Shown here: positions 5,538-34,017 of the stretch, piece after piece | Layout: the number at the start of each line of letters is the position of its first letter | Position numbering within the stretch: the first letter of the stretch is position 1 | Assembly (NCBI GenBank): GCA_937974195.1 | Contig: CALJIC010000280.1 | Location: forward strand, 70,112-134,111 | DNA: 64,000 nt | Direction: 5' to 3' | Source: an uncultured Roseiflexaceae bacterium | GTDB taxonomy: Bacteria; Chloroflexota; Chloroflexia; Chloroflexales; Roseiflexaceae | Made by a program: the position numbers and the translations under genes | The notes under the pieces: model-generated | The model's input: the letters and a program-made list of their open reading frames with translations, nothing else | Databases searched by the model: none | Told to the model about the DNA's origin: nothing

Positions 5538-8468
5538 TTAGCTGCGGCGCGCCCGCGCGTACTCGGCTGCGGCGAGCAGGCGCGGGCGGGCGGCGAGGAG
5601 CCGCGAGAGCCAGCGCTGCCGCTCGAAGCGGTCCGGGACGCACCCCGGGTGGTCGAGGATGTACTGGCGCTGGCAGCCGCGGATGGCGTTCCAGCGCGCG
5701 AGCACATGCTCCCACTCCGCCTGGTCGAGCGCCGCCAGCGCGGCCACGGTCTCACCCTCGGCGGCCGGGCCGTAGGCCAGCCGGGTCAGGAGCGGGTCGA
5801 TCGGATCGGGCCGCTCCGGCAGCACAGTTCGCCAATCCGGGCCTGTGTACGGCGGGACTTCGGGCTCCTGCGGCGGCGGCCAGGGCAGCGGGCGCATCGA
5901 GAACGGGCCTGCCGGCGCGCCCTCGCAGCGCAGGACGGCGTACTGGTGCTGCGTAGGGTTCTGCTGGCTGATGTCAGCGGCGGTGATGCCGCTCGCCGCG
6001 TAGGCCCTCGCGTAGACCGAGGCGTCCGGCTCGCTGGTCTGCAGAATGATGCGGTTGGCTGCGTTGATAAGCATGATGTCTCGCAGGTCGCCGAGCTGGG
6101 CGAGGGCCTGGTGGGCGTAGATAGCGGGGATGCCGAGCGAGCGCAGCCGGGTCATCGCCACCTCGAGATCGGCCGCCGCGCCGCCTGCCAGCACCTGCAG
6201 CTCGTCCACGACCAGCGGGTAGCTCGCGCGGGTGGTGTCGGAGCCGCCGCGGGCAAACGCCGCGCGCACGAACGCCTGGAAGACCAGCATCCCGACTGCG
6301 CCCGCCAGGCCGCCGAGGGTCATGTCCGGCAGCGGCACCAGCACGATCAGCCCGCGCTCGATCGCATCCGTGAGGTTGAATGTCGGCTCGGCCTGGGTCG
6401 CCAGGTAGCGTGTCGTCTCGGAGGTGAGCAGGGCGTCGAGGCGCCGCAGCAGGGCGTCGCGGCTGCTGCGCTGGCCCTCGCCCAGCTGCCCGAATGTCGT
6501 CCGCCAGAAGGAGACGACCTCGACGTTCGACGCGCCCTCGAGCAGCCGCGTGCGGTAGGCGTGGTCCAGCAGCGCCTGCCTGACGTGCGCGAGCGTTGGC
6601 TGCGGCTCGCTCTCCAGCACGAGCAGCGTCGCCATCGTTGCGAACTGCTGCATGCCCGGCGCCTTGCTCCACGTCTCCGGGTCGAGCCGCGCGAAGATCG
6701 CGAGCACCTGCCCGAGCGCCAGGTCCGCGCCGCCGGGCTGGGCCAGGTCGGCGCCCGCCAGCGGGTTCAGCCCGATCGGCCAGGCCGCGTCGAGCACGTC
6801 GAGCAGCACCAGGCGCCCCTCGTCCGCCAGCGGAGTGAGCCGGCGAACTGTCGTGACCAGGCTCCCTTCGCGGTCATCGCCCTTACCGTCGATCAGCGTG
6901 AAGCCGTGCGGCGCGAACTGGACGCAGATATTGGCGAGCAGGCGGCTCTTGCCCGCGCCCATCCCGGCGGTGAGATGCAGGATCTGCCGCAGGTCGCGAA
7001 GCGAGGGGCCGACGGGCGCGTCGGTCCCGTCCGCGTGGCGCGCGTAGCCGACCGCGACCCGGTCGCTGCCGGTGGCCGGGCCGATGAATGCGTGTGGCGG
7101 CGCCTGGATCCTGCGGCAGTCGAGGAGCCGCACCAGCCCGCTGATCGAGGGCGCCGGCAGATGCCAGAGGCCGGCGAGCTCCGCGGGCGTCAGGATATCC
7201 GGGTCGCGCCAGGGGCGGAGCGGCAGCAGCAGAGTGGCCGGAGGCGTGAAGCGCGGGACTCGCCCGAGGACTGCTGACTGCGCGCCGCGCCCGTGCCCGA
7301 TCGGGACGAGGCGCTGGAGCCGGCTGGCGGTGCGAGCCTGGTATGCCGCCAGCGCATTCCCGACTGCGTCCAGGGCCGCGCGTCCTGTGTCCAGGTTATC
7401 GGCGACTGCGACGGCGCGGATGGTCACTTCGAACGGCGCCCCGGCGAGCTTCGTCTCGAGCGCCGCCGCGTCCTGCGCAAGAGCGTAGTCCTCCTTCTGC
7501 TCCAGCCGGAGCTTGAGCGCGGTGCCGCGCCCGCGCCACCCGCGGTTCAGCACCCAGCCGAGCGCGCCCGCGCAGGGGCGCACGACGATCTGCAGCTCGA
7601 CGTAGCTGGCCGCGTGCGGGCGCACCGCTGCCAGCAGCGGCCCCAGCGTGTCGGCCGGGGTCTCGGCGCTGAGCCGCAGCGGGTACTCGGGCGGGAGCGC
7701 GAGGCCGAACTCGCGCCACATGACAACCGGGGCCTCCGCGGCCCTGGCGCGGAGCGGGTCTTCAGCCGGCTCGACGACTGCGCCGGGCGCGAGGCCGGCG
7801 ATGGCGTGAGAAACGAGCGCGAGGGCGCGCCCGCGCTGTCGCTCGCTTCCAGCCACGAACGCGCCTAGCTCAGCCGGCTGATCCGGCTCGGCGCCGATCA
7901 CCAGCGCGCACCAGGGGGCGCGCCCGGACAGGCGGCCCCGCGTCGGGAGGCCGGCGGCGAGCACGGAGAACAGCTCCATATCCGGCCCGACACGAGCGGC
8001 TCCACTGCCCGGGCCGGCCTCGCGGGGAAGCAGGACGCGGGCGTAGACGCCGCGCCGGCCATGGTGGGCGGTCGCCCGTGCCTGCAGCGCCATCGCGCAC
8101 CCCGCGACCAGCAGCTCGGCGGCGATGCCGAGCAGGCCCACGAGCGCGGCCGCGCGCACCAGCGGCTGCCAGGCGTCATCGAGAGCTGCGCTCAGCAGCG
8201 CGGCTGCGAGGAGCTCCGGCCCGGGCGGCGCGGGCAGCGCCAGAGGCGCGAAGCTGGATGGCTCGACACCGGTGGCTTGGGCGGCGGGACGCGTGCTGCC
8301 GAAGGTGCGCTCGAGCTGCTGCAGCGGCTCCCGCAGCAGCGCAAGCCCGATGACGACGAGCAGCGCGGAGCGAACGATCGCCGGCAGCAGCCCAGGGCGC
8401 GGCGGTCTGGTGCCACGAGGCGGCTGGGCGCCCGCTCGCCCCGCCGATGGGTGTGATCTGGCAGACAT
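5538..8468 (-). CDS. Type IV coupling protein-like ATPase (VirD4/TraG/TraD family) with a large N-terminal membrane/unknown region
   Basis: 976 aa with N-terminal hydrophobic segments. Walker A is TAGMGAGKS, followed by FTLIDGKGD (T4CP-like DpKGE box). Walker B is PLVVDELQVLAG, followed by AHQALAQL (Q-rich motif). A strong RBS (GAGGAGGAG) precedes the ATG at 8468. Confidence 0.6.
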   Translation of the reverse strand: MSARSHPSAGRAGAQPPRGTRPPRPGLLPAIVRSALLVVIGLALLREPLQQLERTFGSTRPAAQATGVEPSSFAPLALPAPPGPELLAAALLSAALDDAWQPLVRAAALVGLLGIAAELLVAGCAMALQARATAHHGRRGVYARVLLPREAGPGSGAARVGPDMELFSVLAAGLPTRGRLSGRAPWCALVIGAEPDQPAELGAFVAGSERQRGRALALVSHAIAGLAPGAVVEPAEDPLRARAAEAPVVMWREFGLALPPEYPLRLSAETPADTLGPLLAAVRPHAASYVELQIVVRPCAGALGWVLNRGWRGRGTALKLRLEQKEDYALAQDAAALETKLAGAPFEVTIRAVAVADNLDTGRAALDAVGNALAAYQARTASRLQRLVPIGHGRGAQSAVLGRVPRFTPPATLLLPLRPWRDPDILTPAELAGLWHLPAPSISGLVRLLDCRRIQAPPHAFIGPATGSDRVAVGYARHADGTDAPVGPSLRDLRQILHLTAGMGAGKSRLLANICVQFAPHGFTLIDGKGDDREGSLVTTVRRLTPLADEGRLVLLDVLDAAWPIGLNPLAGADLAQPGGADLALGQVLAIFARLDPETWSKAPGMQQFATMATLLVLESEPQPTLAHVRQALLDHAYRTRLLEGASNVEVVSFWRTTFGQLGEGQRSSRDALLRRLDALLTSETTRYLATQAEPTFNLTDAIERGLIVLVPLPDMTLGGLAGAVGMLVFQAFVRAAFARGGSDTTRASYPLVVDELQVLAGGAAADLEVAMTRLRSLGIPAIYAHQALAQLGDLRDIMLINAANRIILQTSEPDASVYARAYAASGITAADISQQNPTQHQYAVLRCEGAPAGPFSMRPLPWPPPQEPEVPPYTGPDWRTVLPERPDPIDPLLTRLAYGPAAEGETVAALAALDQAEWEHVLARWNAIRGCQRQYILDHPGCVPDRFERQRWLSRLLAARPRLLAAAEYARARRS

Positions 8469-11858: not shown

Positions 11859-13724
11859 CTACCGGTCGTGTCCGGTGATGATGCGGTGGATCGTCTCGGG
11901 CCACATCGGGATCAGCACCGGCGTGCGCTCGCCGTCGGCCAGAAGCAGCGCGCTCGCCCCGATACCCTTCACCAGCCGGCAGCCGGCGAGGTAGCGGGCC
12001 TCCTCGTCGTTCAGGCCGAGAAGGGCGGCGGCGCGCGCCACGGCTCTGGAGTCGCGGTTGAGCCCGAGCACCAGCTTCGTCCGCGCGTTCTCCAGCAGCA
12101 CGCGCGTCTGCTCGCTCTCGTCCAGGTCGTCGAGGCTCTGGGTGATCACCGTGGCCTTGAACTGCAGCGAGCGCCCGATGCGGAAGATGGTCTGGAGCGT
12201 CCGCGCGCCGGCCTCGGACTGAAGCAGGGCGTGCGCCTCGTCCAGCACCAGGTGGCTGCGGGGTGCGGCGCGGCGGTTGAGCGCCGTCGTCACGAAGAAG
12301 TCCATCACGATCACCGGGAGCAGCCGCTCGAGCACGTCGTCGCGCGCGCGCAGCAGCGACGAGAGGTCGATCGCGAGCAGCGGCGAGTCGGTTGGGATGT
12401 TCGAGGGGCGGCTGAACAGGTCCCCGACTGTGCCGCGCGTGAACAGGTCCAGCGCCTGGGCCAGCGCTCGCTCCTGCGCGCTTTCGGCGAGCGACGTGAG
12501 GCGCGCCTGGACGTCGCCGAAGGTCGGCATCGGCCGATCGAAGCTCTGCGGGTCGGGCGTGATCCCGTGCGCCTCGTAGGACTCGAACAGCGCGCGCTCG
12601 ATCAGCGCCATCCCGCTCGCGTCCACCGCGGTGCCCATCGCCCGCAGCTCGCGGGTGATCAGCGCCTTGACGAAGCCGACCCGCTGGCCCAGGAGGTCCT
12701 CCTCCAGCTCCGCGACCAGCTGCGCGCGCTCGGGCGTGAGGCGCGGCAGCTCAAGTGGGTTGATGTGGAACCCGGCGCGCCGCGACAGCGTGATGTACGT
12801 GCCGCCCAGCGCCGTCACCAGGTGGCGGTACTCCTGGTACTTCGGGTCCAGGATGAGCAGCGCCTCATCGCCGAGGGCGAGCTCCTGCGCCAGCAGCCCG
12901 CTCACCGCGTAGGTCTTGCCGCTGCCGGACTCGGCGACGACCAGCGCGTGGGGGTTGGTGGCCCGCCAGCGGTCCCAGAAGATCGGCCGGCCGTTCTGCG
13001 GGTGCTCGCCCCACACGATCGGCAGACCGTCTCGCCGGCTCAGCCCGGCCGGGGCGACCGGCATGCCCATCGCCGCGGCGCGCCCGCTGGTGTCGTGCGC
13101 CAGCCCGAGCTCTTCGCGGCCGAGCGGCAGCGCCCAGATGTAGCCCTCCCACTGGCGGAACGGCGGCACGCCCAGCTCGACCCCCTGGCGCGCCGCGGCG
13201 AGCCGGATCGCCTCCACGCGGGCGCGCAGCTCCTCGTGGGTCGGCGCCACCACGGTGATGGCGATGCTGTACTGGAAGAGGCGATCCGCGCCGCTCGCCA
13301 GGTCGCGGCGCAGAGCTGCGGCCGCCTCCATGCCCTGCTGCGCGTCCACGTCCAGGCTCACGCCGGCCTGAACGTCGCCCGCCAGCGTCCCGAGCCCGGC
13401 CTCCTCGCTGCTCGTCAGCAGCCGCCGCGCGAGAGCGTCGGGGATGGGCACGATGCGCTGGTGGACCGTGATGCCCGGCGTGTCGAGCCCGAGGTTGGCG
13501 TCGCTCAGCCAGGCGAGCGCGAGCGTCGGCGGGAAGCTGCGCACGTGCAGCGTCGTCATCCAGGACGCGCCGGCCTGCATCACGCCCGACCTGCGCCGGT
13601 CCACGCCGTCGGGCGCGATCAGATCGGCGACCCCGCTTGCGCCGGAGCGGAGCCGCTGTCCCGCCCCGTGCAGCACGCCGCGCCGCTCGATGACCGGTTT
13701 CTGGAGTGCATCTCGAAGGGTCAT
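11859..13724 (-). CDS. VirB4/TrbE/CagE-like conjugal-transfer-type ATPase (C-terminal ATPase region)
   Basis: 621 aa with a GAGGAGG RBS. Walker A is NPHALVVAESGSGKTYAVSGLL, followed by LILDPKYQEY. Walker B is HLVLDEAHALLQ, followed by KATVITQSLDDLDES. This is the VirB4-family motif order. Confidence 0.7.
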   Translation of the reverse strand: MTLRDALQKPVIERRGVLHGAGQRLRSGASGVADLIAPDGVDRRRSGVMQAGASWMTTLHVRSFPPTLALAWLSDANLGLDTPGITVHQRIVPIPDALARRLLTSSEEAGLGTLAGDVQAGVSLDVDAQQGMEAAAALRRDLASGADRLFQYSIAITVVAPTHEELRARVEAIRLAAARQGVELGVPPFRQWEGYIWALPLGREELGLAHDTSGRAAAMGMPVAPAGLSRRDGLPIVWGEHPQNGRPIFWDRWRATNPHALVVAESGSGKTYAVSGLLAQELALGDEALLILDPKYQEYRHLVTALGGTYITLSRRAGFHINPLELPRLTPERAQLVAELEEDLLGQRVGFVKALITRELRAMGTAVDASGMALIERALFESYEAHGITPDPQSFDRPMPTFGDVQARLTSLAESAQERALAQALDLFTRGTVGDLFSRPSNIPTDSPLLAIDLSSLLRARDDVLERLLPVIVMDFFVTTALNRRAAPRSHLVLDEAHALLQSEAGARTLQTIFRIGRSLQFKATVITQSLDDLDESEQTRVLLENARTKLVLGLNRDSRAVARAAALLGLNDEEARYLAGCRLVKGIGASALLLADGERTPVLIPMWPETIHRIITGHDR

Positions 13725-13753: not shown

Positions 13754-14428
13754 CTACGCCCCCACGATCCGCCGCACCCGGTCGAGCAGCGCGCCGGCCA
13801 GCGGGTAGCGCTCACTGCGCACCGGGTCCGCCTGGCGGTACAGCAGCATCACGATCTCCTCGCGCTCCATGAGGCGCGGCGAGGGCGTGCCGCCGAGGAT
13901 CGACAGCGCCTCGACGAGGCGCCGGGCGCGCTCGATCGCCGCTGTTAGCGCCGGGCGCCCGGGAGTCTCAGCGCCGGCGCCCTTTCGACGCAGGTCACCG
14001 CGCAGCAGCGACGCGAGCGAGGGCGGCCCGGCGAGGCCGGCGGCGCCGCCCTCGGACGTGACCGCCCAGACCACCTGCTTCGAGCGGCTGCTCGTGTGCT
14101 GCTCGAGCGCGTGCAGGTAGTCGCAGATCTCGCCCAGCACCGCGGCGTGCAGCCGCCGGCCCTCCGCGAGCGCTCGCTCCTGGCGGACGAGCAGCTCCGC
14201 GACCTCGTCAGCCACGTCGTGCGGCTGGTCGAAGACGTAGATGTCGAGCGGCGCGTCGAGCGCCAGCAGCAGGCGGTGGTAGTCGGCGGCGGCGTGTGCG
14301 CGAGCCTGTCGCGGCGCCAGCTCCCACTGCGGCGCGCCGCCCACCACAAGCCCAACCCCGACGCCGTCGGAACGGAGCAGCCCGCCGCGCACGACCTGGA
14401 TGGCGAACAGCGCGCGTAGCTCGTTCAT
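13754..14428 (-). CDS. Hypothetical protein; possible detached N-terminal partner of the VirB4-like ATPase
   Basis: 224 aa with a GGAGG RBS. It lies immediately upstream of the VirB4-like gene, and its stop overlaps the next upstream gene's start region. The combined length (224 + 621 aa) approaches a canonical VirB4. No motif recognised. Confidence 0.35.
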   Translation of the reverse strand: MNELRALFAIQVVRGGLLRSDGVGVGLVVGGAPQWELAPRQARAHAAADYHRLLLALDAPLDIYVFDQPHDVADEVAELLVRQERALAEGRRLHAAVLGEICDYLHALEQHTSSRSKQVVWAVTSEGGAAGLAGPPSLASLLRGDLRRKGAGAETPGRPALTAAIERARRLVEALSILGGTPSPRLMEREEIVMLLYRQADPVRSERYPLAGALLDRVRRIVGA

Positions 14429-14817
14429 GGCGTGCCTCCGGGCTCATGCTGCCAGCGCGGGCGGCGCGGCAGCGCGTGGGTGGCGGTCTCCGGCGGAAGC
14501 GTGATCTCGGGCCGCTCGAGCTCGAGCTGCCCTGGCCGCGACAGGTGCGCCGCGACCAGCCGGACGAACGCCCAGGTGGAGTAGCCCCACCAGCTTCCCT
14601 CGAGCAGCACTATGCCGACGCCGGCGACCAGGCTGAGCCACTGGGCGACGGCGATCAGGTCCGCCCCGCGCGCCACCGCGATTCCGCCGACCAGCACGCA
14701 GCCCATGACGAGGACGAACGAGCGCGCTGGGAGGCGGGTGTTGGCCATCTGCAGCGAGGCGCGGACGCGCAGGCGACGCGGGGCGCGGACGGCGAGATAC
14801 TCGTCGTACATGGTCAC
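14425..14817 (-). CDS. Small two-TM membrane protein (VirB3/TcpE-like candidate)
   Basis: 130 aa with two hydrophobic helices (FVLVMGCVLVGGIAV and LSLVAGVGIVLL). The GTG start overlaps the upstream stop (GTGA). Its position directly upstream of the VirB4-like gene matches VirB3-VirB4 synteny. The assignment rests on context only. Confidence 0.35.
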   Translation of the reverse strand: MTMYDEYLAVRAPRRLRVRASLQMANTRLPARSFVLVMGCVLVGGIAVARGADLIAVAQWLSLVAGVGIVLLEGSWWGYSTWAFVRLVAAHLSRPGQLELERPEITLPPETATHALPRRPRWQHEPGGTP

Positions 14818-15086
14818 TTGATCAGCTCGGCCGCTTTGCTGGCGATGGTCGGCGCCTGCCCGGCGAGCGCCAGCAGAATGACGAACACCGCCAGGTCGAT
14901 CCCCGCCGAGCGCAGGTCGCGCGGGCTTGAGAAGAGGTGCTTCGCCATATCGATCAGCAGGAAGAAGCCGCCGCCGACCGTGATGACGCGCAGGAGCCAG
15001 GTGGTGAGCTCGGCGAAGAAGCCGTCCATCGAGGGGAGCGCGCCTGCCAGCGAGGAGAGCTCGGCAAGTGTGTGGATCGCGAACAT
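14814..15086 (-). CDS. Small hydrophobic protein, pilin-like (VirB2/TrbC-like candidate)
   Basis: 90 aa from the internal Met (MFAIHTLAELSS...), which has an excellent RBS (AGGAGG, 8 nt from the ATG). Two hydrophobic segments flank a charged loop. No Flp GxxxxEY motif. Confidence 0.35.
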   Translation of the reverse strand: MFAIHTLAELSSLAGALPSMDGFFAELTTWLLRVITVGGGFFLLIDMAKHLFSSPRDLRSAGIDLAVFVILLALAGQAPTIASKAAELIK

Positions 15087-15153
15087 GGTTGGTGCCTCCT
15101 GTGTTGTGCGATGTACTGCGAGAACGAGCCGAAGGCCAGTGTCTGAATGAGCG

Positions 15154-17904
15154 CTAGTTACACCATCCCCACCCCCTCCAGACCGCGCAGCTCGCGCTGC
15201 GCAGCCACTCAAGCACCGATCCGCCGCCGTACCGCCCGCCGTCGGCGTAGGGTGACCAATACTGACCGGCGGGCGTGGCGCCGGGGACCGGGGTGACGAC
15301 CAGCGAGTCCGGGTGTCCGGGCGGCGGAAGCTGGTAGGGCGCGCCCTCGGGGATCACGGTTCCCCCGGCGAGGCGCTCGCCCCCGAGCGCCCTCGGCAGG
15401 AAGTCGAGCGGGTCGGCCATCTCGGTCCAGCAGCTCGCGTCCGGCGGCGGAGACAGGCCGCGCAGCCACTCCGCGGTACACACGTTGGTCGCCCGGAAGC
15501 TCCCGTCGTAGCTTCGTACGCGCAGGCCGAGATGGAGGTGTGGACCGGTTGTTGCGCCGCTGAGGCCGACAAACCCGACGATGCTGTCGAGCTGGTGCAC
15601 CTTGTCTCCGGGGCGCACCGGCGGGCCGCAGCCCGCGATGGTCTCGACAGCGCCTGAGAAGGAAGGCTGGCCCGGCGCGCAGAGACCGGCCTGGTCCCCC
15701 TGCGGCGCACCGTCGAGCGGCGGCGCTACCGGCGTGCCGGGGTCCAGCGTCATCTCTTCGCACCCGCTGACGATGCGCCGGGCCTGCAGAAAATGCGCCC
15801 GGTAGAAGGGGTCCTGGGAAACATCGTGCAGCACGCAGCCGACGCGGTGGTTGAAGCAGTCCATGAACAGCCCCTGCCCGGCGTAGATCGCGACGTGCTG
15901 GCCGCCGGAGTAGCGCAGGAACACCAGGTCTCCCAGCGCCCAGCAGCGGGTCTCCGCGCCGCGCAGGTCGTCGAGCGTGCAGGGGAGCGCCACCCCGTCG
16001 TCGAGCTGCTGGTAGGTGTTGCTGCCGATCGCGACCCCGGCCTGAGCGTAGGCCCACCAGACCAGCCCCGAGCAGTCGAAGGAGTTCGGGCCGGTGCGCG
16101 GGAGCGGGAGGCCGTCCGGGCCGCGCGGATCGCCGGGCAGCGCGCCCCCCTGGCTGTAGCGCGCCCCCTGGCGGCTGAGGGCGGCAACGACGGCCTGGAA
16201 GCAGGGCGCAGGCGCCGGGAATACCTGTGGCACGGTGGTTGGCTGGACGGGGTGGGGGTAGGCGACGGGCGCTGTCGGGCTTCTGGTCGCCGTCGGCGGA
16301 TAAGTGGGCGGCGGCCAGGCCTCCGGTGTGATGACCAGGTTCGACAGCTTGACCACGACCTGCTGCGCGACAGATACGCCCTCAGCGGATGCGACCATGC
16401 GCACGGAGACTCGCGCGAGCGGGCGGGCGTCGCTGGCGCGCACGATGAGGCGAACAGTCGCCGGCGCGCCGTTCCACGCCCTGACCAGGCAGTGGGCCTC
16501 GGCGCCGGAGCAGCTGCCGGCGGTGGTTGAAACATCGAGCAGCTCGAGCTGGGGGTCGAGCTCGAGCTGGACGGCGATGCTCTGCGGCGCGCCTTGCCAG
16601 CTGAAGATCGAGCCGGTGAGACTGAACACCTGGCCGACCGCCGGGCTCGGGTGGGACGCCGCGAGGCTCAGCGACAGCGGCTCCCTGGTGGGCTCCGAGG
16701 TAGCTGAAGTTGCAACTGGGGACGGCGGGAGCGTGGCCGTCTCCGCAGGCATCGCCTGATATGCCGCGGCGTACGACATCGCCGAGCCCGAGCCGTGGGC
16801 GGTAAACGTTCCCGATGATGCATTTGTGAGCGGTAGAGCGCCGAGTCTCCACGTACACCGGCTGCCGCCTGCGACACGCTCGCAGCGGGCCGCTGTCGCC
16901 GGGCGCGCGCTCGATGTCTCCGCAGAGCTCTTGGGCGGCATCAGCCCCTGCCCGAGCTCCAGCGAGCCGCTGATCGCCGGCGTGGCCGTCGGTGGGGGCG
17001 GGGGCGGCACGAGATGTGCCCGGAAGCGCAGGGCCACGTCGCCGGCCGCGCGCCCGGCGTCCACCGGCGTCTGCCAGGTCAGCGAGACCTCCTCGCCCGG
17101 ACGGCCCGCCGGCTCGTCGGGGATCCATCCCTCCCAGCCGCCGCCGCGCTGGCCCCAGCTCACCGTCGTGCGGCAGTTGGCCGGCCGGTCATAGGTGAAC
17201 ATAACGGTTCCCGGGCCCACGCGCTCCGGCACGAAGCGCGGCATATCGCCCGCGCACCACACGCTGATCTCGCCGTCGGCCATATCCGGCTGGAGCTCGC
17301 CGTGGCCGACCGGCTGGTAGCCGTCGTATGCCTCGTAGCGCCCGTAGCGATCGGCGATCCGGCCCTGCAGCTGCACGTACAGCCGGTAGGGCTCGAGGTG
17401 CGCGTAGAGCGCCTCGAAACCCTCCTGGGCGCTCGTGATCCGCACCGTCTGGCCGCCAGCAGCCGCGTGCGGCTGCTCGGCCCCGGGGTTGTCCCAGCCG
17501 ACATATGTCACGGTGGCGTCGAAGAGCGCGGCCGCCGGGCAGCGGCGGCAGAACGCCTGTCCGGCCAGGTCCACCCCCTCGTGGAACTCGACCTGCTGCG
17601 GATTCAGCGGGTCGGCCCGCCACCCGAAGCCGCTCGTGACCGACCAGCCTGCAGCGCGGTAGCCGCCGGCTGTGTCAGTCGCGACCGGCACCGGCCAGAC
17701 GACGGTGGAGCTCTGGAACACAGCTCCTGCCATCGCACACGCCAGCACGATCGCAAGGACTCCCAGCGTCAGGGCGGCGACAAGCGCGAGCGCGGGCCCG
17801 GCCTTGAGCGCCAGCCCACTTCGGGCTGCCCAGGCCACTGGCACTGCAGGGGATCGCTCGTCGCCCTCCTGCCCCGCGTACGTCTCTTGTTGGTTGTCGC
17901 TCAT
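15154..17904 (-). CDS. Large membrane-anchored cell-wall hydrolase with M23 peptidase and NlpC/P60 domains
   Basis: 916 aa with an N-terminal TM segment. The M23-like start reads GFGWRADPLNP...HEGVDLAG. A Pro/Thr/Ala-rich linker region follows. The NlpC/P60 signature reads FDCSGLVWWAYAQAGV...GDLVFL...GQHVAIYAG. A C-terminal M23-type motif reads GATTGPHLHLGLRV. Confidence 0.7.
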   Translation of the reverse strand: MSDNQQETYAGQEGDERSPAVPVAWAARSGLALKAGPALALVAALTLGVLAIVLACAMAGAVFQSSTVVWPVPVATDTAGGYRAAGWSVTSGFGWRADPLNPQQVEFHEGVDLAGQAFCRRCPAAALFDATVTYVGWDNPGAEQPHAAAGGQTVRITSAQEGFEALYAHLEPYRLYVQLQGRIADRYGRYEAYDGYQPVGHGELQPDMADGEISVWCAGDMPRFVPERVGPGTVMFTYDRPANCRTTVSWGQRGGGWEGWIPDEPAGRPGEEVSLTWQTPVDAGRAAGDVALRFRAHLVPPPPPPTATPAISGSLELGQGLMPPKSSAETSSARPATAARCERVAGGSRCTWRLGALPLTNASSGTFTAHGSGSAMSYAAAYQAMPAETATLPPSPVATSATSEPTREPLSLSLAASHPSPAVGQVFSLTGSIFSWQGAPQSIAVQLELDPQLELLDVSTTAGSCSGAEAHCLVRAWNGAPATVRLIVRASDARPLARVSVRMVASAEGVSVAQQVVVKLSNLVITPEAWPPPTYPPTATRSPTAPVAYPHPVQPTTVPQVFPAPAPCFQAVVAALSRQGARYSQGGALPGDPRGPDGLPLPRTGPNSFDCSGLVWWAYAQAGVAIGSNTYQQLDDGVALPCTLDDLRGAETRCWALGDLVFLRYSGGQHVAIYAGQGLFMDCFNHRVGCVLHDVSQDPFYRAHFLQARRIVSGCEEMTLDPGTPVAPPLDGAPQGDQAGLCAPGQPSFSGAVETIAGCGPPVRPGDKVHQLDSIVGFVGLSGATTGPHLHLGLRVRSYDGSFRATNVCTAEWLRGLSPPPDASCWTEMADPLDFLPRALGGERLAGGTVIPEGAPYQLPPPGHPDSLVVTPVPGATPAGQYWSPYADGGRYGGGSVLEWLRSASCAVWRGWGWCN

Positions 17905-20091: not shown

Positions 20092-20261
20092 AGCTCCCCG
20101 CCGACCCGCCGTGTTGTGAACTTGCCCGCCTCGATCCAGAACAGCATGGTGTCAGTCGTCACGCGGTACAGATCGGCCGCCTCGCGCAGCGGCATCCACT
20201 CCTCGCGCAGCGCCATGTGCTGAACCATCGCCGCCAGTGAAGGCCATCGTCCCTGTCGCAT
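20013..20261 (-). CDS. Excisionase-family helix-turn-helix DNA-binding protein (HTH_17-like)
   Basis: The segment LREAADLYRVTTDTMLFWIEAGKFTTRRVGGELWLSREEL matches the excisionase/AlpA-type HTH pattern. Basic C-tail. The true start may be an internal Met. Confidence 0.5.
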   Translation of the reverse strand: MRQGRWPSLAAMVQHMALREEWMPLREAADLYRVTTDTMLFWIEAGKFTTRRVGGELWLSREELYAGLRRRPAVPPGAKRRR

Positions 20262-21319: not shown

Positions 21320-22255
21320 TCAGTAGTCGATATCGTCGATCCGCGCGAGCAGCAGGCCGGCGACGATCGGCGCAAGGAGCGCCGCGGCCACCAGCACCCC
21401 CGCGGCGAGGCCGAGCGGGCCCTGGTAGGCTCGCGCCACCCGGTCCTGCTGCGTCACCAGCAGGTACGCCGCCATCAGCAGGCCCGCAAGCCCGATCGCC
21501 ACGCCGCTGTAGCGCATCTGGGCCAGCTCGGTCGCTGCGGCGCTGCGGCGGCGCTCGGCGGCGAAGAGCGCGAGCGAGGCGGCGCCGAGCCGCTGGGTTA
21601 GCACATCGTGGGTCTGCCCGAGCGCGACCTCGAGGTGGCCGAGAAACGTCGCGTGGCGCCGCGATGGGGTCTGCTGCGCGAGAGCGGCGACGACCTGCTC
21701 CGGCGTCGCGAGGCCGCGGCGCGTCACAGGGGCGGCCATGCGCTCGGCCAGAAACGTCCACTCGGAGCGCAGCGGCCCGGCGGGCAGATCCGCGACGACG
21801 CGCTCGAGCGCGCCCTGGAAGCTTCCGCCCGCGCGCAGGTAGCCGCAGAGCCGCCCGACGACCGCCGGGAGCGCGCGGTCGAGCGCGTCCACATAGCGCG
21901 CCTCCTGCGCTCGGAGAAACGCCCAGATCACCAGGCAGGCGGCCGGCGCGGCGAGGACCAGGGCGATGAACGGCGTCGCGACGAGGCTGAGGGCGGCGGT
22001 CACCAGCAGCACGGCGGCCAGGCTCGCGCCGAACAGCTGACCTGGTGTCGTCACCGGCGGCGACCAGAGCAGCGCCGGGTCTTCGTCTCCGGCGGTGGCG
22101 CGCCGGCGCTCGATCAGCCGGCGGCAGGCGCTCAGACCCCAGCCGCGCAGTGTCAGTGAGACCCCGAGGATGCCGCCCAGGAGGAGCCAGAGCGGCACCG
22201 ACACGGCGATCCAGGCCGTCTCGGGGTGCGTCAGGGGCGTGCTACTCACGTCCAT
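21320..22255 (-). CDS. Tad/Flp pilus inner-membrane platform protein (TadB-like, T2SS-F domain)
   Basis: 311 aa membrane protein with the same architecture as its neighbour. This is the classic TadB-TadC pair downstream of the secretion ATPase. Confidence 0.55.
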   Translation of the reverse strand: MDVSSTPLTHPETAWIAVSVPLWLLLGGILGVSLTLRGWGLSACRRLIERRRATAGDEDPALLWSPPVTTPGQLFGASLAAVLLVTAALSLVATPFIALVLAAPAACLVIWAFLRAQEARYVDALDRALPAVVGRLCGYLRAGGSFQGALERVVADLPAGPLRSEWTFLAERMAAPVTRRGLATPEQVVAALAQQTPSRRHATFLGHLEVALGQTHDVLTQRLGAASLALFAAERRRSAAATELAQMRYSGVAIGLAGLLMAAYLLVTQQDRVARAYQGPLGLAAGVLVAAALLAPIVAGLLLARIDDIDY

Positions 22256-24339: not shown

Positions 24340-25628
24340 ACGCGCACCTCGCCTGCTTCGATCTGCCGCAGCGGCGCGCCGGCGCCGGAGTCGACCGCGA
24401 TGCGCTCGCCGCGCAGGCGCTGCCACAGCGAGGAGCGCGGCATCGGGCGCGGCGGGCGGAGGCCCACCTGGGCGCACAGCCGGTCGACAAGCTGGTGGGC
24501 GCCGCGTGACAGGCGGCTGTGCGGCGCGACGTCCAGCGGGGACAGGTAGCGGTCCCCCTCCTCGTCGGCGATGCTCACCTGGCGCGGGGCGCGCGGCAGC
24601 CGACCGAGCGTGAGCGCGCGCGGGAAGTGGCGCGCGAACAGCGGCGCGACCTGGTCGACCGTCGCGGTCACGCCGCGCTCGGGGTCCATGAACAGCAGGA
24701 AGCAGCGGTCTGTCAGGTCGCGGTCGGCCACGGCGCTCTGCAGCGCGCGCAGCATGTTCCCCGCGCCCGCGCGCTCCTTCCGGCCGGGCGGGGTCGGCAG
24801 CACGACCCAGCCGCCGTCGCGGGCGCACAGGATCGCGTACGGCCGCTTCTTGATCTCCGGCCCCGTGTCGAGCAGCACGACGTCGTACTCGCTCAGCCCG
24901 CGCACCCCCTGCATCAGCGCGAGCCACTCCGAGCGCTGCAGGTCGCGCGCGTCGGTGGTCTCCTCCGACCCGAGCAGAAAGTCGATGCCGCTCGCCTCGT
25001 GGTGGTAGATGTAGCGGCGAATGTTGTGCGGCGCCCATGCGGCCTGGTCCGCTGCGCCGCGCGCCGCATCGCCGGCGATGTGCAGGTAGGACGGGAAGCC
25101 GGACGGGATGCGGAAGGTCGGCACCAGGCCCGAGTTGGAGAGATCGCCGTCGACGACCAGCACTCGCAGCCCGCGCCGCCGCATGCCTTCCGCGAGCAGC
25201 GCCACCACCAGCGACTTGCCGATGCCGCCCTTGGCGCCGGCCACCGCGATCGTGACCTGCTCGCGCGATGGCCGGGCTCTCCTGCCGAGCTGCTGCGCGA
25301 TCCACGCGGCGAGCGGCTCGGCTTCGTGCTGGTGGGTGAAGGAGAGGCCCGCGTCCGTGAAGTCGTCGCTCTGCGCCACCGCCGCGCCCCGCACCCCCGC
25401 CAGGGCCGGGATGCCGAGCGCCTGCGCGCGCCGGACGACCTCCCACAGCTCCTGCGGCGAGCCGCACACATCCTCGACGTAGACCGCCTGCGGCGGGCGG
25501 GTGCTGCCCAGGATGTGCAGCGCCCGCGCCAGCGAGGGCGCGCTGAGCACCTCGAGCCCGTCGTATCCGCAGAGGGCCGCGCCCAGCCCAGGGACCGCGC
25601 TCACGATCAGTAGCTCCGTAGTCGTCAT
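24336..25628 (-). CDS. CpaE/TadZ-like protein: degenerate receiver-like N-domain plus ParA/MinD-type ATPase
   Basis: Start at MTTTELLIVSAV, which has a GGAGG RBS (residue 49 of the track ORF). Deviant Walker A reads VAGAKGGIGKSLVVALLAEG, followed by VLVVDGD. Confidence 0.7.
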   Translation of the reverse strand: MTTTELLIVSAVPGLGAALCGYDGLEVLSAPSLARALHILGSTRPPQAVYVEDVCGSPQELWEVVRRAQALGIPALAGVRGAAVAQSDDFTDAGLSFTHQHEAEPLAAWIAQQLGRRARPSREQVTIAVAGAKGGIGKSLVVALLAEGMRRRGLRVLVVDGDLSNSGLVPTFRIPSGFPSYLHIAGDAARGAADQAAWAPHNIRRYIYHHEASGIDFLLGSEETTDARDLQRSEWLALMQGVRGLSEYDVVLLDTGPEIKKRPYAILCARDGGWVVLPTPPGRKERAGAGNMLRALQSAVADRDLTDRCFLLFMDPERGVTATVDQVAPLFARHFPRALTLGRLPRAPRQVSIADEEGDRYLSPLDVAPHSRLSRGAHQLVDRLCAQVGLRPPRPMPRSSLWQRLRGERIAVDSGAGAPLRQIEAGEVRV

Positions 25629-25701: not shown

Positions 25702-26871
25702 TTACAGGCTGCCGCGCCCCCAGTCGCCCTGCACCCAGCCGGCGCGGCGCGTCTCGTCGCTGTCGGGGTCATAGGCGAGCAGAACGTGGGTCGGGTAGCG
25801 GTCGCCGCTGTGGCCGCCTGCCCCCAGCGGCAGCACCTCCTCGATGCGCCCGACGCGCCGGCGCCCGCCGTACCGGCCGATATGCGCCACGAGCAGCGGC
25901 ACCGCGCCGGAGGCGATCAGCCCGCGCACGACGGCCGGCGGGGCCTCGCCGGCCTCGCAGGCCATGCGCTCGAGGTTCTTGAGCGCCACCTGCGGCTCGG
26001 GCGCGTGGATCGTGCCCACGCCAGGGTGCCCCGTCGCCGCCCCCTGCAGGAGCGCCAGCGCCTCCGCGCCGCGGACCTCGCCGACGGCGATCAGGTCCGG
26101 GCGCTGGCGGAGCGCGAAGCGCACGCACTCGACGAAGGAGAGGCCGCTGCGCAGAACCTCCATCGCGACGCCGTCCGGCAGCGCCGGCAGCTCCGATGCC
26201 TCCTCGATCACCACGACACGCTTCTCCTCGCCGATGGCTGCCAGCAGCGCCGCGGCCAGCGTCGTCTTGCCGCTGCCGGTGCCCCCGGCGATCAGGATCG
26301 AGACGCCCGCGCGGACCGCCTCGAGGAGCAGGTCGGCCGCCTCGCGCGCCAGCACGCCCTCCAGCACCAGGTCGTCGAGCGTGCGCCAGCGCCGCGGCAG
26401 GATGCGCAGGGCGATGGTGCGCCCGTCCGGCGAGGCTGGCGGGCGCGTGACGGCGAAGCGCAGCCGCCGGTCCGCTGTGCCCAGCACCGCGTGGCCTGGC
26501 CAGCCGCCGTACTCCTCATCGATTGCGCCGCCGCGCACCAGCAGCTGGCGCTGGGCGAAGCTGATCCATCCCTCGTGGACCTGGACGCCGGTCGGCAGAC
26601 GCGTGCCGCGCTCGACGGTCACGACCGGCCGGAGCGGGCCGTTGATGAAGATGTCCGTGACTGCCGGCTCGTCCAGCCAGGGCTCGAGCGGCCCGTACCA
26701 GGCGGCGCCGTCGAGATGCAGCAGCGCCAGTTCGTCCAGGCCGAGCGCGGCCAGAGTCTGCTCGGGCGGAAGCGACCAGTCGATCGCGCGCTCGCGTACG
26801 GCGGTGCGGAGGCGTTCGAGCAGCGCATCGTCGAAGTGGGTGGGCAGGTCCAACATAGCAAGCTCCTTCAC
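25702..26871 (-). CDS. CpaF/TadA-type pilus assembly ATPase
   Basis: 389 aa. Motifs are ILIAGGTGSGKTTLAAALL and VVVIEEASEL, plus the T2SS-E His/Asp boxes. Compact canonical CpaF size. Confidence 0.8.
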   Translation of the reverse strand: MKELAMLDLPTHFDDALLERLRTAVRERAIDWSLPPEQTLAALGLDELALLHLDGAAWYGPLEPWLDEPAVTDIFINGPLRPVVTVERGTRLPTGVQVHEGWISFAQRQLLVRGGAIDEEYGGWPGHAVLGTADRRLRFAVTRPPASPDGRTIALRILPRRWRTLDDLVLEGVLAREAADLLLEAVRAGVSILIAGGTGSGKTTLAAALLAAIGEEKRVVVIEEASELPALPDGVAMEVLRSGLSFVECVRFALRQRPDLIAVGEVRGAEALALLQGAATGHPGVGTIHAPEPQVALKNLERMACEAGEAPPAVVRGLIASGAVPLLVAHIGRYGGRRRVGRIEEVLPLGAGGHSGDRYPTHVLLAYDPDSDETRRAGWVQGDWGRGSL

Positions 26872-27761
26872 CGGGCGTCCGGCTCCTGCTCAGCCTCTGT
26901 CGCGACGGCCGGCCGCGGCGCGCCAGGGATGGCGCCCGCGCCCAGCGTCGTCTCCGCTGACGGCGCGCTCTCGGCGGCCGAGGGATCGTGCGGCTCCGGC
27001 TGTGCGCTCTCGGCGGGGACCGGGGCGGCCAGCCGCGTGAGGTCGATGTGCGCGGCGTCGAGCGGCTGCAGCTGCGGCAGCGGTTCCGACCCCGCGCCGT
27101 AGCGCTCGCCCCACAGCTGGACGCCGGCAGCTTGGAGCGCCCAGACCGCGTGGGCCTGGTAGGGCGTCACCTCCAGGTAAGCGACGCCGGACTCGATGTA
27201 CAGCACCGGGACGCCGGTCAGGAAGCGGCACGCGAAGGCCTGCTCGCCGCGCGCCGGCGGCAGCTCGCCGTCGGGCGGGTTGCAGAGCGCCGGATCGTCG
27301 GCGATGAAGCCGATGTTCACCCGGTCGCGGTCGTTCAGCGGGCCGATCGACGCGACGGAGAAGGGCAGCGGCACGGCGTTACGCGCGAGCCGGCGGCCGT
27401 TCGGATACACCGGCTGGTCGGGCGGGCTGTCGAGCAGCATCCCCGGCTGCAGCAGGTCGTTCGGGCCGATCTCGCGCGCCGCCCAGCGGCCCACGGCGCC
27501 GGCCATGTCGCTCATGCCGGCCAGCTGCGCCGGGCGGTGCAGGGGCAGCTCGACGAAGCCGACGTCCTCCGCCGTGATCTGCCGGCCGTAGGGCACCGGC
27601 CGCAGGGCGATGAGCACCCGCTCGGTGCGCCGGCTCTCGAGGAAGCCGTAGGCCGCTGCGCTGAGCGCCACGATCAGCCCAAGGGTGAGCAGCAGCGCGG
27701 GTGCGACGTTCGGCCGGCGCGGGTTGAGCGCCTGGCTGAGTGGTTGTGATCTGAGTGTCAT
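26868..27761 (-). CDS. Flp pilus assembly protein CpaB-like (N-terminal TM + SAF domain)
   Basis: 297 aa. N-terminal TM segment (VAPALLLTLGLIVALSAAAYGF), then a SAF-like segment (GRQITAEDVGFVELP). Its stop overlaps the cpaF start. Confidence 0.6.
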   Translation of the reverse strand: MTLRSQPLSQALNPRRPNVAPALLLTLGLIVALSAAAYGFLESRRTERVLIALRPVPYGRQITAEDVGFVELPLHRPAQLAGMSDMAGAVGRWAAREIGPNDLLQPGMLLDSPPDQPVYPNGRRLARNAVPLPFSVASIGPLNDRDRVNIGFIADDPALCNPPDGELPPARGEQAFACRFLTGVPVLYIESGVAYLEVTPYQAHAVWALQAAGVQLWGERYGAGSEPLPQLQPLDAAHIDLTRLAAPVPAESAQPEPHDPSAAESAPSAETTLGAGAIPGAPRPAVATEAEQEPDAR

Positions 27762-27801: not shown

Positions 27802-28440
27802 TTACGGAGCGACGGTGTCGAGCGTTTCCGCGGCGTCGATCTGCGGCGTCCACACGCCCCAGCCGAGCAGGCCGAGCATCTTGGGGCGAACGGTCGCGCA
27901 GACCAGCGGTGTCGGCGAACTCACCGGCGGCTGGTTGGGGAAGGTGCAGCTTCCGCCCGCCGGGTGGATGGTCCAGGTGATGCGCGCCACGAGCTCTTCG
28001 GGCGTCTCGGCCAGGCCGCGCACCCCAGCGAGGTTGCGCCGGGCCACAGCGCAGCCGACGGCGCGTGCGCTGCGGGGCGGGGCATCGGCGCAGCCGACGC
28101 GCGTCGGCTGGGGCTCACCCGCCAGCCGGTGCGTGTTCGCTGCGAACCCGGCGTAGTCGAAGCTCTGGACGGCTGAGCGGGTTGCCTGCTGCAGCGCGTC
28201 TTCGAGCATCGCGCGCTCCAGGAAGCGCTCGCCGATCTCGATCGAGGTCATGAGCAGCGCGCCGAGAAATGGGAGCAGCACGGCGACGAGCGCGAGCGAC
28301 TGGCCCGGGTGCGCCCGGATGACCTGGGCTCGTTCGCTCACGCTGCTCGGGGCCAGCCGCCCCAGCCACGCCTGCGACGGTCGTGCGCGGCCGTGTGCCC
28401 GCTTCAGCGTTGTGCGCGGAGTTGTTGCTCGATAGTTCAT
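27802..28440 (-). CDS. TadE/TadG-like pseudopilin/pilus assembly protein
   Basis: 212 aa. Hydrophobic TadE-like N-terminal segment (SLALVAVLLPFLGALLMTSIEIGERF) after a basic leader. Confidence 0.5.
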   Translation of the reverse strand: MNYRATTPRTTLKRAHGRARPSQAWLGRLAPSSVSERAQVIRAHPGQSLALVAVLLPFLGALLMTSIEIGERFLERAMLEDALQQATRSAVQSFDYAGFAANTHRLAGEPQPTRVGCADAPPRSARAVGCAVARRNLAGVRGLAETPEELVARITWTIHPAGGSCTFPNQPPVSSPTPLVCATVRPKMLGLLGWGVWTPQIDAAETLDTVAP

Positions 28441-28473: not shown

Positions 28474-28893
28474 CTACTGCTGGTCCCGTTCGGCGGCGCG
28501 TGTGGCGCTGATGTCGGCCCGGATGCGGTCGAAGGGGCCGATCGGCGCCCAGGGCGTATCGTCGTACTGGATGCGCACGGTGATCGCGTCGTACCGGCGG
28601 CAGCGCGAGACGGCTTGGCCCTCCGCGTTGCGGCAGGTCACCGTCATCGTCGCCCGCGCCGCGCTCGTGCCCATCCCGCCGTCGAGGATCAGGCGCGCGC
28701 TCTCTGCCACCTGCCCCGGCGCGGTGGCGAGACCACCGTCCGGCCCATCCGGCCCGCCGAGCAGCGCGGCCTGGTGCGCGGCGGCGCGGACCGCCTGCGC
28801 CACCGTGTACTGCGTCATCAGGATCTGCATGACGGTGATGGCCCCGAACACGAGCAGCAGCAGGATCAGCATCACGATCGTCATCTCGACCAT
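28474..28893 (-). CDS. TadE-like protein
   Basis: 139 aa from the internal Met (residue 259 of track ORF 28474..29667): MVEMTIVMLILLLLVFGAITVMQILMTQYTVAQAVRAAAHQAAL. This is a TadE-type N-terminus. The upstream part of the track ORF is antisense to the CAP-domain gene. Confidence 0.5.
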   Translation of the reverse strand: MVEMTIVMLILLLLVFGAITVMQILMTQYTVAQAVRAAAHQAALLGGPDGPDGGLATAPGQVAESARLILDGGMGTSAARATMTVTCRNAEGQAVSRCRRYDAITVRIQYDDTPWAPIGPFDRIRADISATRAAERDQQ

Positions 28894-29001
28894 CGCCTGG
28901 CCGTGTGTGCTGGCCGCGCGGATCTCTTTAAAACTGGTTATGAGGCGCGTGTATCCTGGCTGCAATCTGCCCGTTTCACGGCGCTGCCAGGAGGCCCCCG
29001 T

Positions 29002-29658
29002 ATGATGATCCGCCACACTCTGATCCGCTCGCTCGCTGCGCTGCTGCTCTGCTCCAACCTGGCGCTGCTCGGCGGGGTACTTGCCGCCGACGGCGAGCTG
29101 CTGCCGGCGGCCTACCTCCCGCTTGTGAGTAACGGCAAGGAGCCCACGGCGCGCCAGCCGACTCCCACCACCAGGCCGACCACTGTGCCGACCGTTCAGC
29201 CCACGCAGCCGCCGCTGGGCGGGGTGTGCTTCGATGGTGTCACGGTGAACGCCGCAGCCTGTGAGGACGAGATCATTCGGCTCGTGAACCTCGAGCGGCA
29301 GCGGGCCGGGTGCCCGCCCGCCGTGCGCGACGAGCGGCTCATGATCGGTGCGCGCAACTGGAGCCGCTACATGCTGGAGCACGGCATCTACGAGCACAGT
29401 CCGCTCGGCTGGTACGAGCGACCGGAGAACGGCGGCTACCCGAACGGAGCGGGCGAGAACATCGCTGGCTCTGGTTTGCCTGAAGACATCGTGGTTGGCT
29501 GGATGAGTAGCTCTGCCCACCGCAACCTCATCCTGTCCTGTTACCGCTCCGATCCCAGCGACCCGATCAACTACAATCCGCATGCGACGTATGAAATCGG
29601 TGTGGGCTATGTCCCGAACGGGTTCGTAACCCTCGCCCTTGATCCACTGGGAAGCTGA
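29002..29658 (+). CDS. Secreted CAP/SCP (PR-1-like) domain protein
   Basis: Start at MMIRHTLIRSLAALLLCSNLALLGGVLAA (signal peptide) with a GGAGG RBS. It is residue 232 of track ORF 28309..29658. CAP motifs include GHYTQ-like and HYEHSPL/GENIAG segments. It is the only plus-strand gene inside the minus-strand array. Confidence 0.6.
   Translation: MMIRHTLIRSLAALLLCSNLALLGGVLAADGELLPAAYLPLVSNGKEPTARQPTPTTRPTTVPTVQPTQPPLGGVCFDGVTVNAAACEDEIIRLVNLERQRAGCPPAVRDERLMIGARNWSRYMLEHGIYEHSPLGWYERPENGGYPNGAGENIAGSGLPEDIVVGWMSSSAHRNLILSCYRSDPSDPINYNPHATYEIGVGYVPNGFVTLALDPLGS

Positions 29659-34017: not shown

Follow-up and report, generated by a model that had tools for sequence, protein, structure and literature searches.

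The stretch of DNA considered here (64,000 nucleotides, hereafter the window) comes from contig CALJIC010000280.1 of a metagenome-assembled genome (MAG) of an uncultured Chloroflexota bacterium of the family Roseiflexaceae and has a G+C content of about 72%. Besides dnaA (42499-44031), with scpB immediately upstream of it, the window carries a long minus-strand array in which the genes of a type IV secretion system (T4SS) of monoderm type directly follow those of a divergent Tad-like pilus module (Table 1). Analysis of the G+C content at third codon positions (GC3) and of open reading frames (ORFs) delimits an uninterrupted and tight run of 20 genes, from a TadE-like gene at 28914 down to a coupling-protein-like gene at 5538, with junctions of -110 to +73 nt plus a single one at 224 nt. 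The original prediction had counted 22 consecutive minus-strand genes beginning with a giant adhesin gene, a count that fails because a plus-strand gene encoding a CAP-domain secreted protein cuts off the adhesin. GC3 by segment indeed indicates that only the last ~146 codons (28474-28914) of the minus-strand ORF 28474-29667 (397 aa) are coding, and that 28990-29658 codes on the plus strand, with GC3 of 0.80-0.88 in the plus frame. Another ORF, 20457-21761 (434 aa), was discarded as a wrong-frame artefact covering two real genes (20507-21304 and 21320-22255).

Table 1. Genes of the array and of its adhesin side, listed along the minus strand. TM, transmembrane; related loci bear numbers beginning with L.
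Gene	Product	Positions	Strand	Evidence
	PAP2-family membrane phosphatase	34075..35403	-	Pfam PAP2 1.7e-15; kept upstream of adhesin in L035
	giant secreted adhesin, 1430 aa	29725..34017	-	Pfam SdrD_B 4e-43, DUF11 1e-33 (repeats)
	CAP/SCP-domain secreted protein	28990..29658	+	Pfam CAP 1.8e-9, signal peptide; interrupts array
g20	TadE-like pseudopilin, ~146 aa, start uncertain	28474..28914	-	Pfam TadE 2.6e-8 (above cut-off); N-terminus GQAMVEM
g19	TadG/pseudopilin-like protein	27802..28440	-	N-terminal hydrophobic helix after GQS; TM helix residues 49-67
g18	CpaB/RcpC-like SAF-domain protein	26868..27761	-	Pfam SAF 2.6e-7; TIGR03177 pilus_cpaB 6.8e-6; N-terminal TM helix
g17	CpaF/TadA-like ATPase 1	25702..26871	-	Pfam T2SSE 1.5e-30
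g16	CpaE/TadZ-like ParA/MinD-family ATPase	24336..25628	-	Pfam AAA_31, CbiA, ParA; TIGR03815 CpaE_hom_Actino 1.7e-7
g15	CpaF/TadA-like ATPase 2, ~270-aa helical C-terminal extension	22273..24111	-	Pfam T2SSE 3e-24; TIGR03819 1.4e-32
g14	TadC-like (divergent T2SSF) membrane protein	21320..22255	-	Pfam T2SSF E 0.019, model positions 5-124 of 125
g13	TadB-like (divergent T2SSF) membrane protein	20507..21304	-	3-4 TM helices; 37-68% identical in relatives
g12	small conserved protein	20152..20505	-	56-66% identical in relatives; no Pfam match
g11	excisionase/HTH_17-type small DNA-binding protein	20013..20261	-	Pfam HTH_17 E 1.4e-3, TIGR01764 E 1.3e-3
g10	bitopic protein, conserved C-terminal ~120-aa domain	19306..20091	-	one TM helix; no PDB sequence match
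g09	VirB6/TrbL-like polytopic membrane protein	17955..19319	-	~5-6 TM helices
g08	membrane-anchored cell-wall hydrolase, M23 + NlpC/P60	15154..17904	-	N-terminal TM helix
g07	small two-TM protein, VirB2/PrgF-like by topology only	14814..15212	-	probable start near 15085
g06	VirB3-like two-TM hairpin	14425..14817	-	two adjacent TM helices; position before VirB4 kept; no family match
g05	224-aa soluble protein, candidate detached N-terminal domain of VirB4	13754..14428	-
g04	VirB4-type ATPase, C-terminal ATPase part	11859..13724	-	NCBIfam conju_CD1110 E 4.8e-60
g03	conserved bitopic membrane protein, 438 aa	10529..11845	-	one N-terminal TM helix
g02	membrane protein, FtsK-like pseudo-ATPase domain + C-terminal ~110-aa domain, 678 aa	8481..10517	-
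g01	membrane-anchored coupling-protein-like (VirD4/TrwB-type) ATPase, 976 aa	5538..8468	-

The T4SS half (g01 to g12) contains a VirB4-family ATPase of the CD1110/FATA type, g04, which covers positions 187-721 of the 752 of the conju_CD1110 model at a score below the equivalog cut-off (325 bits) and matches Pfam P-loop_TraG and AAA_10 above cut-off, with further matches to TraC-F, VirB4_CagE and CedB. As g04 is devoid of the first ~186 model positions and g05 always lies directly upstream of it, VirB4 is apparently split into g05 and g04; the hhalign comparison of g05 with the N-termini of full-length VirB4s was colinear and not significant, so that VirB4 itself is confirmed and the detached partner announced by the original prediction stays a candidate. 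The coupling-protein-like assignment of g01 is backed by its fold and by homology to actinobacterial type IV coupling proteins (T4CPs), a weaker and more indirect basis than the predicted VirD4/TraG-type ATPase implied. The g01 and g02 sequences had no match among PDB chains in a direct search, and the g01 profile retrieved DotL alone from the PDB, with an E-value of 1.1. Neither Pfam nor NCBIfam gave anything significant for g01, g02, g03, g05, g06, g07, g10 or g12.

For g02, three signals point to FtsK: Pfam FtsK_SpoIIIE at E 0.023; a family profile that retrieves a single PDB entry, the FtsK motor 2ius, at E 0.0045 and colinearly across the Walker A and B regions; and FtsK motors in the first five places of a Foldseek search with a poor AlphaFold2 model (pLDDT 42), built from a 4-sequence alignment because the protein search gave 3 homologues only. 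The Walker A motif is degenerate, without GK[ST], in all 14 of the 14 homologues aligned. It is thus reasonable to regard g02 as an FtsK-like protein with a dead P-loop rather than an active FtsK; the dead P-loop holds in every homologue, and the FtsK homology predicted with it rests on these three weak signals. Its C-terminal domain was also considered as an FtsK-gamma-like winged helix, a proposal to which the search of the profile against the PDB gave no support and which is not claimed.

The cell-wall hydrolase g08 harbors both of the domains that had been predicted, NLPC_P60 (2e-13, residues 606-709) and Peptidase_M23 (4.7e-8, residues 107-174), each above its Pfam cut-off. Its M23 motifs seem to be split, with the N-terminal half of the Pfam model at 107-174 and M23-type NCBIfam matches at 763-816; the NlpC/P60 domain and a long, variable region rich in Pro, Ala and Ser lie in between, and relatives align in two flanking blocks. 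The polytopic g09, earlier described as VirB6-like, shows the expected helices together with TrbL matches just under the cut-offs (TrbL E 2.6e-5, 24.5 bits vs. 25.9; TrbL_4 E 4.7e-5, 23.3 vs. 27), and its homologue in a relative likewise has a weak TrbL match. The VirB3-like (g06) and VirB2-like (g07) calls of the original prediction fit by topology, g06 also by gene position, with no family match; the homologues of g07 measure 95-116 aa and are 57-65% identical. By its topology and gene position g10 may be VirB8-like. The bitopic g03 always follows VirB4 in relatives (33-58% identity), with no PDB or Pfam match. The excisionase-like g11 has a homologue in R. castenholzii that is annotated PF12728 and adjoins the T4CP; g12, which overlaps g11 by ~60-110 nt in the window and travels with g11 and the T4CP in Roseiflexus, is by its sequence pattern a putative second HTH_17-like protein.

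The other half, g13 to g20, encodes two CpaF/TadA ATPases, CpaE-like and CpaB-like proteins and a TadE-like pseudopilin, which agree with the predicted Tad parts, together with TadB-like and TadC-like proteins that are recognized only marginally as T2SSF. This family is the commonest Pfam family among the homologues of g13 and g14 (7 of 20, best E 2e-4), and g13 itself has no match. For both ATPases the best NCBIfam model is TIGR03819, currently named 'TadA family conjugal transfer-associated ATPase', at scores below cut-off; g17 matches TIGR03819 at 4e-45, TrbB_P at 3e-41 and VirB11 at 2e-28, each below cut-off, so that its CpaF-like call has to be read with TrbB_P scoring nearly as high as the TadA model. 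An assignment of these T2SSE ATPases as VirB11 analogues was rejected, as CpaF is the better PDB match for both g17 (3e-32 vs. 4e-16 for VirB11) and g15 (7e-18 vs. 2e-9). Although without a Pfam match, g19 is kept beside the TadE-like gene in relatives (49-52% identity), and g20 has the sole Flp/TadE-type N-terminus found in the six frames of the window. Pfam detected no secretin domain in the proteins of the window, an absence that is expected in a monoderm and that had been correctly anticipated. This half is a divergent Tad-like module, to judge from its sequences; to call it a textbook Tad locus, as the original prediction did, overstates NCBIfam Tad scores that remain under curated cut-offs, TadB and TadC proteins that are barely recognizable, and a gene set with neither Flp pilin nor prepilin peptidase. 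The latter two may be encoded elsewhere in the genome.

The adhesin and PAP2 genes are also on the minus strand, past the CAP gene. In six relatives (L030, L031, L033-L036) the TadE-like gene is immediately preceded, in the same orientation, by an adhesin homologue, and it is therefore biologically reasonable to count the adhesin within the array. None of the six relatives examined (L030-L036) has the CAP gene between its adhesin and TadE-like gene, and this PR-1-like gene seems to have entered the unit by a lineage-specific insertion. Simple consensus scans detected no promoter inside the array and no convincing terminator on its minus strand. A minus-strand promoter-like site was seen at 35930-35902, and the PAP2 gene is possibly the first gene of the unit. 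The site belongs to a sigma-70-like divergent pair (35902-36094; plus 11/12, minus 9/12) in the intergenic region between PAP2 and an M23 peptidase gene, the sole such matches across 19-37 kb. That peptidase, the second M23 peptidase of the region (36105-37919, plus strand), carries a Golvesin_C domain, is divergent from the PAP2-adhesin side and may be either connected with the apparatus or independent of it.

VirB4 homologues with more than 45% identity were found in Chloroflexota only (Roseiflexaceae, Roseiflexus and one Herpetosiphonaceae MAG). A tblastn synteny map recovered the order ATPase 2, TadC-like and TadB-like directly upstream of g10, VirB6, hydrolase, g07, g06, g05, VirB4, g03 and g02 at twelve loci (L001, L012-L016, L018-L020, L022, L023 and L028). 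The junction of the Tad-like module with the T4SS is thus kept in at least 12 species-level Roseiflexaceae genomes, with VirB4 divergence down to 60%. In the window the Tad-like module precedes the T4SS with junctions of 1-17 nt, and the one from the TadB-like gene to g12 measures 1 nt. The recurrence of the two-halves synteny in relatives, which the original prediction had proposed as a check, is therefore established. No dnaA was present in the flanks retrieved for the relatives. In the window, and likewise at L007, L010, L018, L022, L027 and L039, a T4CP-like gene stands next to these genes. The Roseiflexus-type T4CP is found at another fixed locus, next to enolase, in the order g12, HTH_17, 139-aa gene and T4CP (R. 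castenholzii and one metagenome contig). In R. castenholzii this 139-aa gene beside the T4CP corresponds to the C-terminal domain of g02 (44% identity, E 3e-22), and the Roseiflexus g02 proteins are without that domain. Because they are co-located both in the window and at the separate Roseiflexus locus, the helix-turn-helix (HTH) proteins, the 139-aa domain and the T4CP constitute a sub-module whose parts remain side by side. The Roseiflexus sub-module locus (L006 9112-10004) adjoins an Eco29kI-type restriction-modification system, and in L038 also an HU gene. A HEAT-repeat and RMKL/UPF0020-type methyltransferase gene (3792-5417, minus strand) lies 120 nt downstream of g01 on the same strand in the window, a place at which it is not kept in relatives; other DNA methyltransferases occur near T4CP or T4SS genes in Roseiflexus and on an Embleya plasmid described below.

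Genes for mobility are absent from this picture. No integrase, relaxase or Rep domain was detected by domain scans in any sizeable ORF of the window, no tRNA gene and no Rfam family in the whole 64 kb, no long flanking direct repeat or att repeat, and no GC step across the 64 kb. Neither the window nor 43 related loci gave a homologue of the actinobacterial Replic_Relax proteins, and no mobility gene was found in the flanks of the relatives; the excisionase-like g11 and g12 are present without an integrase. The absences listed by the original prediction (relaxase, integrase, replication gene, tRNA or direct repeat, GC discontinuity) are thus verified for the whole window. In each of seven Roseiflexus-type genomes, six of them labelled Roseiflexus, the array is followed downstream by the genes of Rex, of a solute-binding protein and of an ABC transporter, and their VirB4 identity (86-95%) tracks that of Rex (88-96%). 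Between L001 and L016, synonymous divergence (dS) is 0.45-0.83 in array genes vs. 0.44-0.66 in the flanks, and the ratio of nonsynonymous to synonymous divergence (dN/dS) is 0.05-0.36 for every array gene. With a dS matching the flanking genes and a low dN/dS, the array genes are functional, and their divergence has kept pace with that of the chromosome; for the same dN/dS values pseudogene decay was rejected. Such data support the earlier claim of a chromosomally fixed system that is not a standard integrative and conjugative element (ICE). Among the signs of an ICE, neither an integrase, att site or tRNA nor a patchy distribution nor a decoupled divergence was found; the site does vary, between genera. 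An older mobility is plausible given this difference of site, the MAGs with two copies and insertions found in relatives, where the gap between g05 and VirB4 is a hot spot receiving an IS200-type Y1 transposase in one case and a PIN toxin with a small antitoxin on the opposite strand in another (L007 2897-3346; L039 4122-4699).

Elsewhere in the window, a 750-aa SPFH/Band7 protein is encoded at 53771-56023 (minus strand), and a very large surface protein with CotH-kinase, LTD, MBG and CHB_HEX_C domains at 60609-63998 (plus strand) runs off the window end in a region of lower GC (~63-67%).

Comparison with plasmids gives the closest arrangement. Plasmid VirB4s of PLSDB are at most 29% identical to g04 and come from Firmicutes, Actinobacteria and haloarchaea, which is the FATA host range. 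Two plasmids of Streptomycetaceae were compared. The linear plasmid unnamed2 of Embleya sp. NBC_00896 (NZ_CP108778.1, 274-297 kb; L040/L041) encodes PrgI, VirB4, T4CP, Replic_Relax and NlpC/P60 proteins and, a few kb on and on the same strand, SAF, ATPase, T2SSF, T2SSF, TadE, TadE/G and TadG proteins. The linear plasmid p1 of Streptomyces sp. BHT-5-2 (L043) shares this T4SS block, but of the Tad genes only a TadG homologue was seen, ~14 kb off on the opposite strand. MOB-suite types both plasmids as non-mobilizable, and no paper describing their two clusters was found. Like the array, they encode a VirB4 and a long T4CP homologous to g04 and g01 (27.5% and 28% identity), a PrgI/VirB3-like protein and an NlpC/P60 hydrolase; their hosts, as that of the array, are monoderm, and neither system has a secretin. 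They differ in being plasmid-borne, with a Replic_Relax gene beside the T4CP, Tad parts that are recognized by standard annotation, and modules that are not abutted. On the contrary, the system of the window is chromosomal and relaxase-less, with two CpaF-like ATPases, an FtsK-like pseudo-ATPase and an adhesin. These homologues suggest, at the sequence level, a conjugative ancestry of the array. A plasmid T4SS of Rubrobacter had no Tad neighbour, and a plasmid search with ATPase 1 (g17) gave proteobacterial CpaF only.

The original prediction was aware of no description of the two modules paired in one operon, a tentative view that yields to the same-strand arrangement on the Embleya plasmid and to the published conjugation systems that are chimeric with type IV pili, R64 and PAPI-1. 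In both of these, VirB4 and VirD4 work with type IV pili (PMC12857230, PMC4027160). The thin pilus of IncI R64 and the pilus of PAPI-1 resemble the array in being type IV-filament pili encoded with VirB4 and VirD4 and needed for mating-pair formation or transfer, but they belong to diderm hosts, are T4b rather than Tad pili, and sit on mobile elements with relaxases. A 2025 review of T4SS diversity mentions neither Tad nor Chloroflexota (PMC12857230), and we found no open-access paper on Roseiflexus and VirB4, or on VirB4 together with Tad pilus and CpaF.

The T4SSs of Patescibacteria, the sister group of Chloroflexota (PMC12102498), are FATA-derived, chromosomal, mostly without relaxase and often near dnaA, with a T4CP usually far from virB4 (PMC12102498, Quinonero-Coronel et al., 2025; reviewed in PMC12857230). 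The array shares with them a monoderm VirB4 system that is chromosomal, relaxase-less and near dnaA, and their T4CP is frequently encoded away from virB4, as it is in Roseiflexus; a type IV pilus is functionally required by the Patescibacteria systems to contact the host. Unlike the array, they have VirB2-like pilin arrays and ordinary type IV pili at other loci, with no abutted Tad-like module, and the likeness drawn here is one of shared traits. In Sulfolobales, Ups pili (type IV-like) join cells and the Ced system moves chromosomal DNA with a VirB4/HerA-family ATPase and without relaxase (cited in PMC12102498), a logic that would be the same as for the array and to which the original prediction had pointed. 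Ups and Ced are encoded at separate loci; the CedB match of g04 is weak (1e-10 vs. 5e-60 for the CD1110-type VirB4), and no CedA homologue was found. The cmdABCDEF operon of Streptomyces is a conserved chromosomal operon with a VirB4-like ATPase and a developmental role (PMC2782261). Like the array it associates membrane proteins with such an ATPase in a filamentous monoderm and is not mobile, and it affects development and chromosome segregation; it is without T4CP, hydrolase and pilus module, and is likened to the array by its description. Finally, Tad pili mediate natural transformation in Micrococcus luteus (PMC4322843), where a secretin-less Tad system serves DNA traffic in a monoderm, but its Flp pilin and tad genes are canonical and no T4SS accompanies them.

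On balance, we think it probable that the array is a vertically inherited and chromosomally fixed envelope machine of Roseiflexaceae (filamentous Chloroflexota), which derives from a monoderm conjugation system of FATA/actinobacterial type and has lost its relaxase and mobility functions. The best-supported reading of the gene order is a T4SS that would share an operon with a divergent Tad-like pilus module and an adhesin gene. Owing to the absence of relaxase and integrase and to the purifying selection seen in relatives, the array looks like a domesticated cell-to-cell transfer apparatus, not a mobile element. The adhesin and the Tad-like fibre would make or stabilize cell-cell or cell-surface contact, the M23 and NlpC/P60 hydrolase would open the wall, and a macromolecule would be moved across the envelope through a VirB4/VirB6 channel fed by the T4CP, with the T4CP, its FtsK-like partner and the HTH proteins possibly selecting the cargo. 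As these last three suggest, DNA or nucleoprotein is a more likely cargo than protein, with export, exchange and uptake as alternative directions. A bolder proposal is a dedicated Roseiflexaceae organelle, in which the T4SS channel is functionally integrated with the Tad-type pilus and adhesin for relaxase-independent cell-to-cell DNA exchange or intercellular trafficking; we put it forward tentatively, as possible and somewhat unlikely. If true, such an organelle would be a bacterial counterpart of the archaeal Ups/Ced systems, with an evolutionary link to the essential T4SS of Patescibacteria. The array is a variant of the relaxase-less (MOBless) monoderm T4SSs and of the T4SSs assisted by type IV pili, not a categorically new system.

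Several observations weigh against this reading of a fixed and coupled machine. In one clade, whose VirB4 identity is 57%, the T4SS block stands by itself with no Tad genes upstream (L003-5 and L021), and at L029-L036 the block from adhesin and TadE to TadB stands by itself and ends at a convergent gene; since the modules occur apart in some lineages, their physical coupling is not obligatory. In the window genome, the plus-strand gene separates the adhesin from the pilus genes. Neither a Flp pilin nor a prepilin peptidase (Peptidase_A24) was found in the window by a six-frame N-terminus scan and Pfam. The fold of g01 alone does not set it apart from VirB4, and the VirB2-, VirB3- and VirB8-like calls follow topology, with no family or PDB sequence match. 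A relaxase gene may lie outside the window, in another part of the genome. Finally, some MAGs carry two divergent VirB4 copies (L008/L011; L022/L025), e.g., with 81% and 70% identity to the window, which could reflect paralogy, strain mixture or past mobility.

The separate occurrence of the two modules (the T4SS alone in L003-5 and L021, the Tad-like genes and adhesin ending at a convergent gene in L033) is also what would be expected of two machines that are simply neighbours, the pilus and adhesin serving filament adhesion or surface motility and the T4SS being unrelated or dispensable; Tad pili have indeed been proposed by Gaisin et al. as a motility appendage of Chloroflexales (PMC7332563). 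We consider such independence unlikely, as the junction between the TadB-like gene and g12 has been kept in at least 12 species-level genomes over VirB4 divergence to 60%, and the Tad parts are far more divergent than expected of a housekeeping Tad locus. The Embleya plasmid moreover has both modules on the same strand and the Streptomyces plasmid a TadG homologue ~14 kb from its T4SS block, and the family nearest to the ATPases was named for conjugal transfer by the NCBI curators.

That a T4SS without relaxase, chromosomal and under purifying selection, would rather export proteins (effectors, toxins, matrix or adhesin components), as in interbacterial-killing or Patescibacteria-type T4SSs, accords with the non-conjugative roles commonly assigned to relaxase-less T4SSs (PMC12102498, PMC3548315). 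This domesticated protein exporter appears quite improbable to us, given that no effector/immunity pair or toxin domain was found in or beside the array and that the T4CP has genetic links with HTH_17 proteins and an FtsK-like partner, which suggests nucleic acid; neither point is decisive. Marginally less probable is the transfer module of an ICE or integrated plasmid that would still be mobile, its relaxase, integrase and att sites lying outside the window or hidden among g03, g10 and g02. All parts are of conjugation type, including the T4CP and the excisionase-like HTH proteins, profiles are known to miss relaxases of Actinobacteria and Archaea (PMC3548315, PMC4027160), and some MAGs have two copies, relatives showing insertions of an insertion sequence and of a toxin-antitoxin pair. 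Against this stand the single chromosomal site and the dS equal to that of flanking core genes across Roseiflexus-type genomes, the Roseiflexus T4CP module at its separate fixed locus, and 64 kb with no integrase, tRNA, repeat, GC step or Replic_Relax homologue.

Relaxase-less chromosomal T4SSs of monoderms have been recognized only recently, in Patescibacteria. The array would be a comparable domesticated system in the sister phylum, which includes the cultivable Roseiflexus castenholzii and is thus open to experiment. The abutted Tad-like module and adhesin suggest a route by which a pilus-less T4SS of Gram-positive type may gain a contact device, and the relatives on Streptomycetaceae plasmids suggest that the pairing of T4SS and Tad began on conjugative elements. 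The finding also bears on the role of the "Tad pili" of Chloroflexales filaments and on gene exchange in hot-spring mats.

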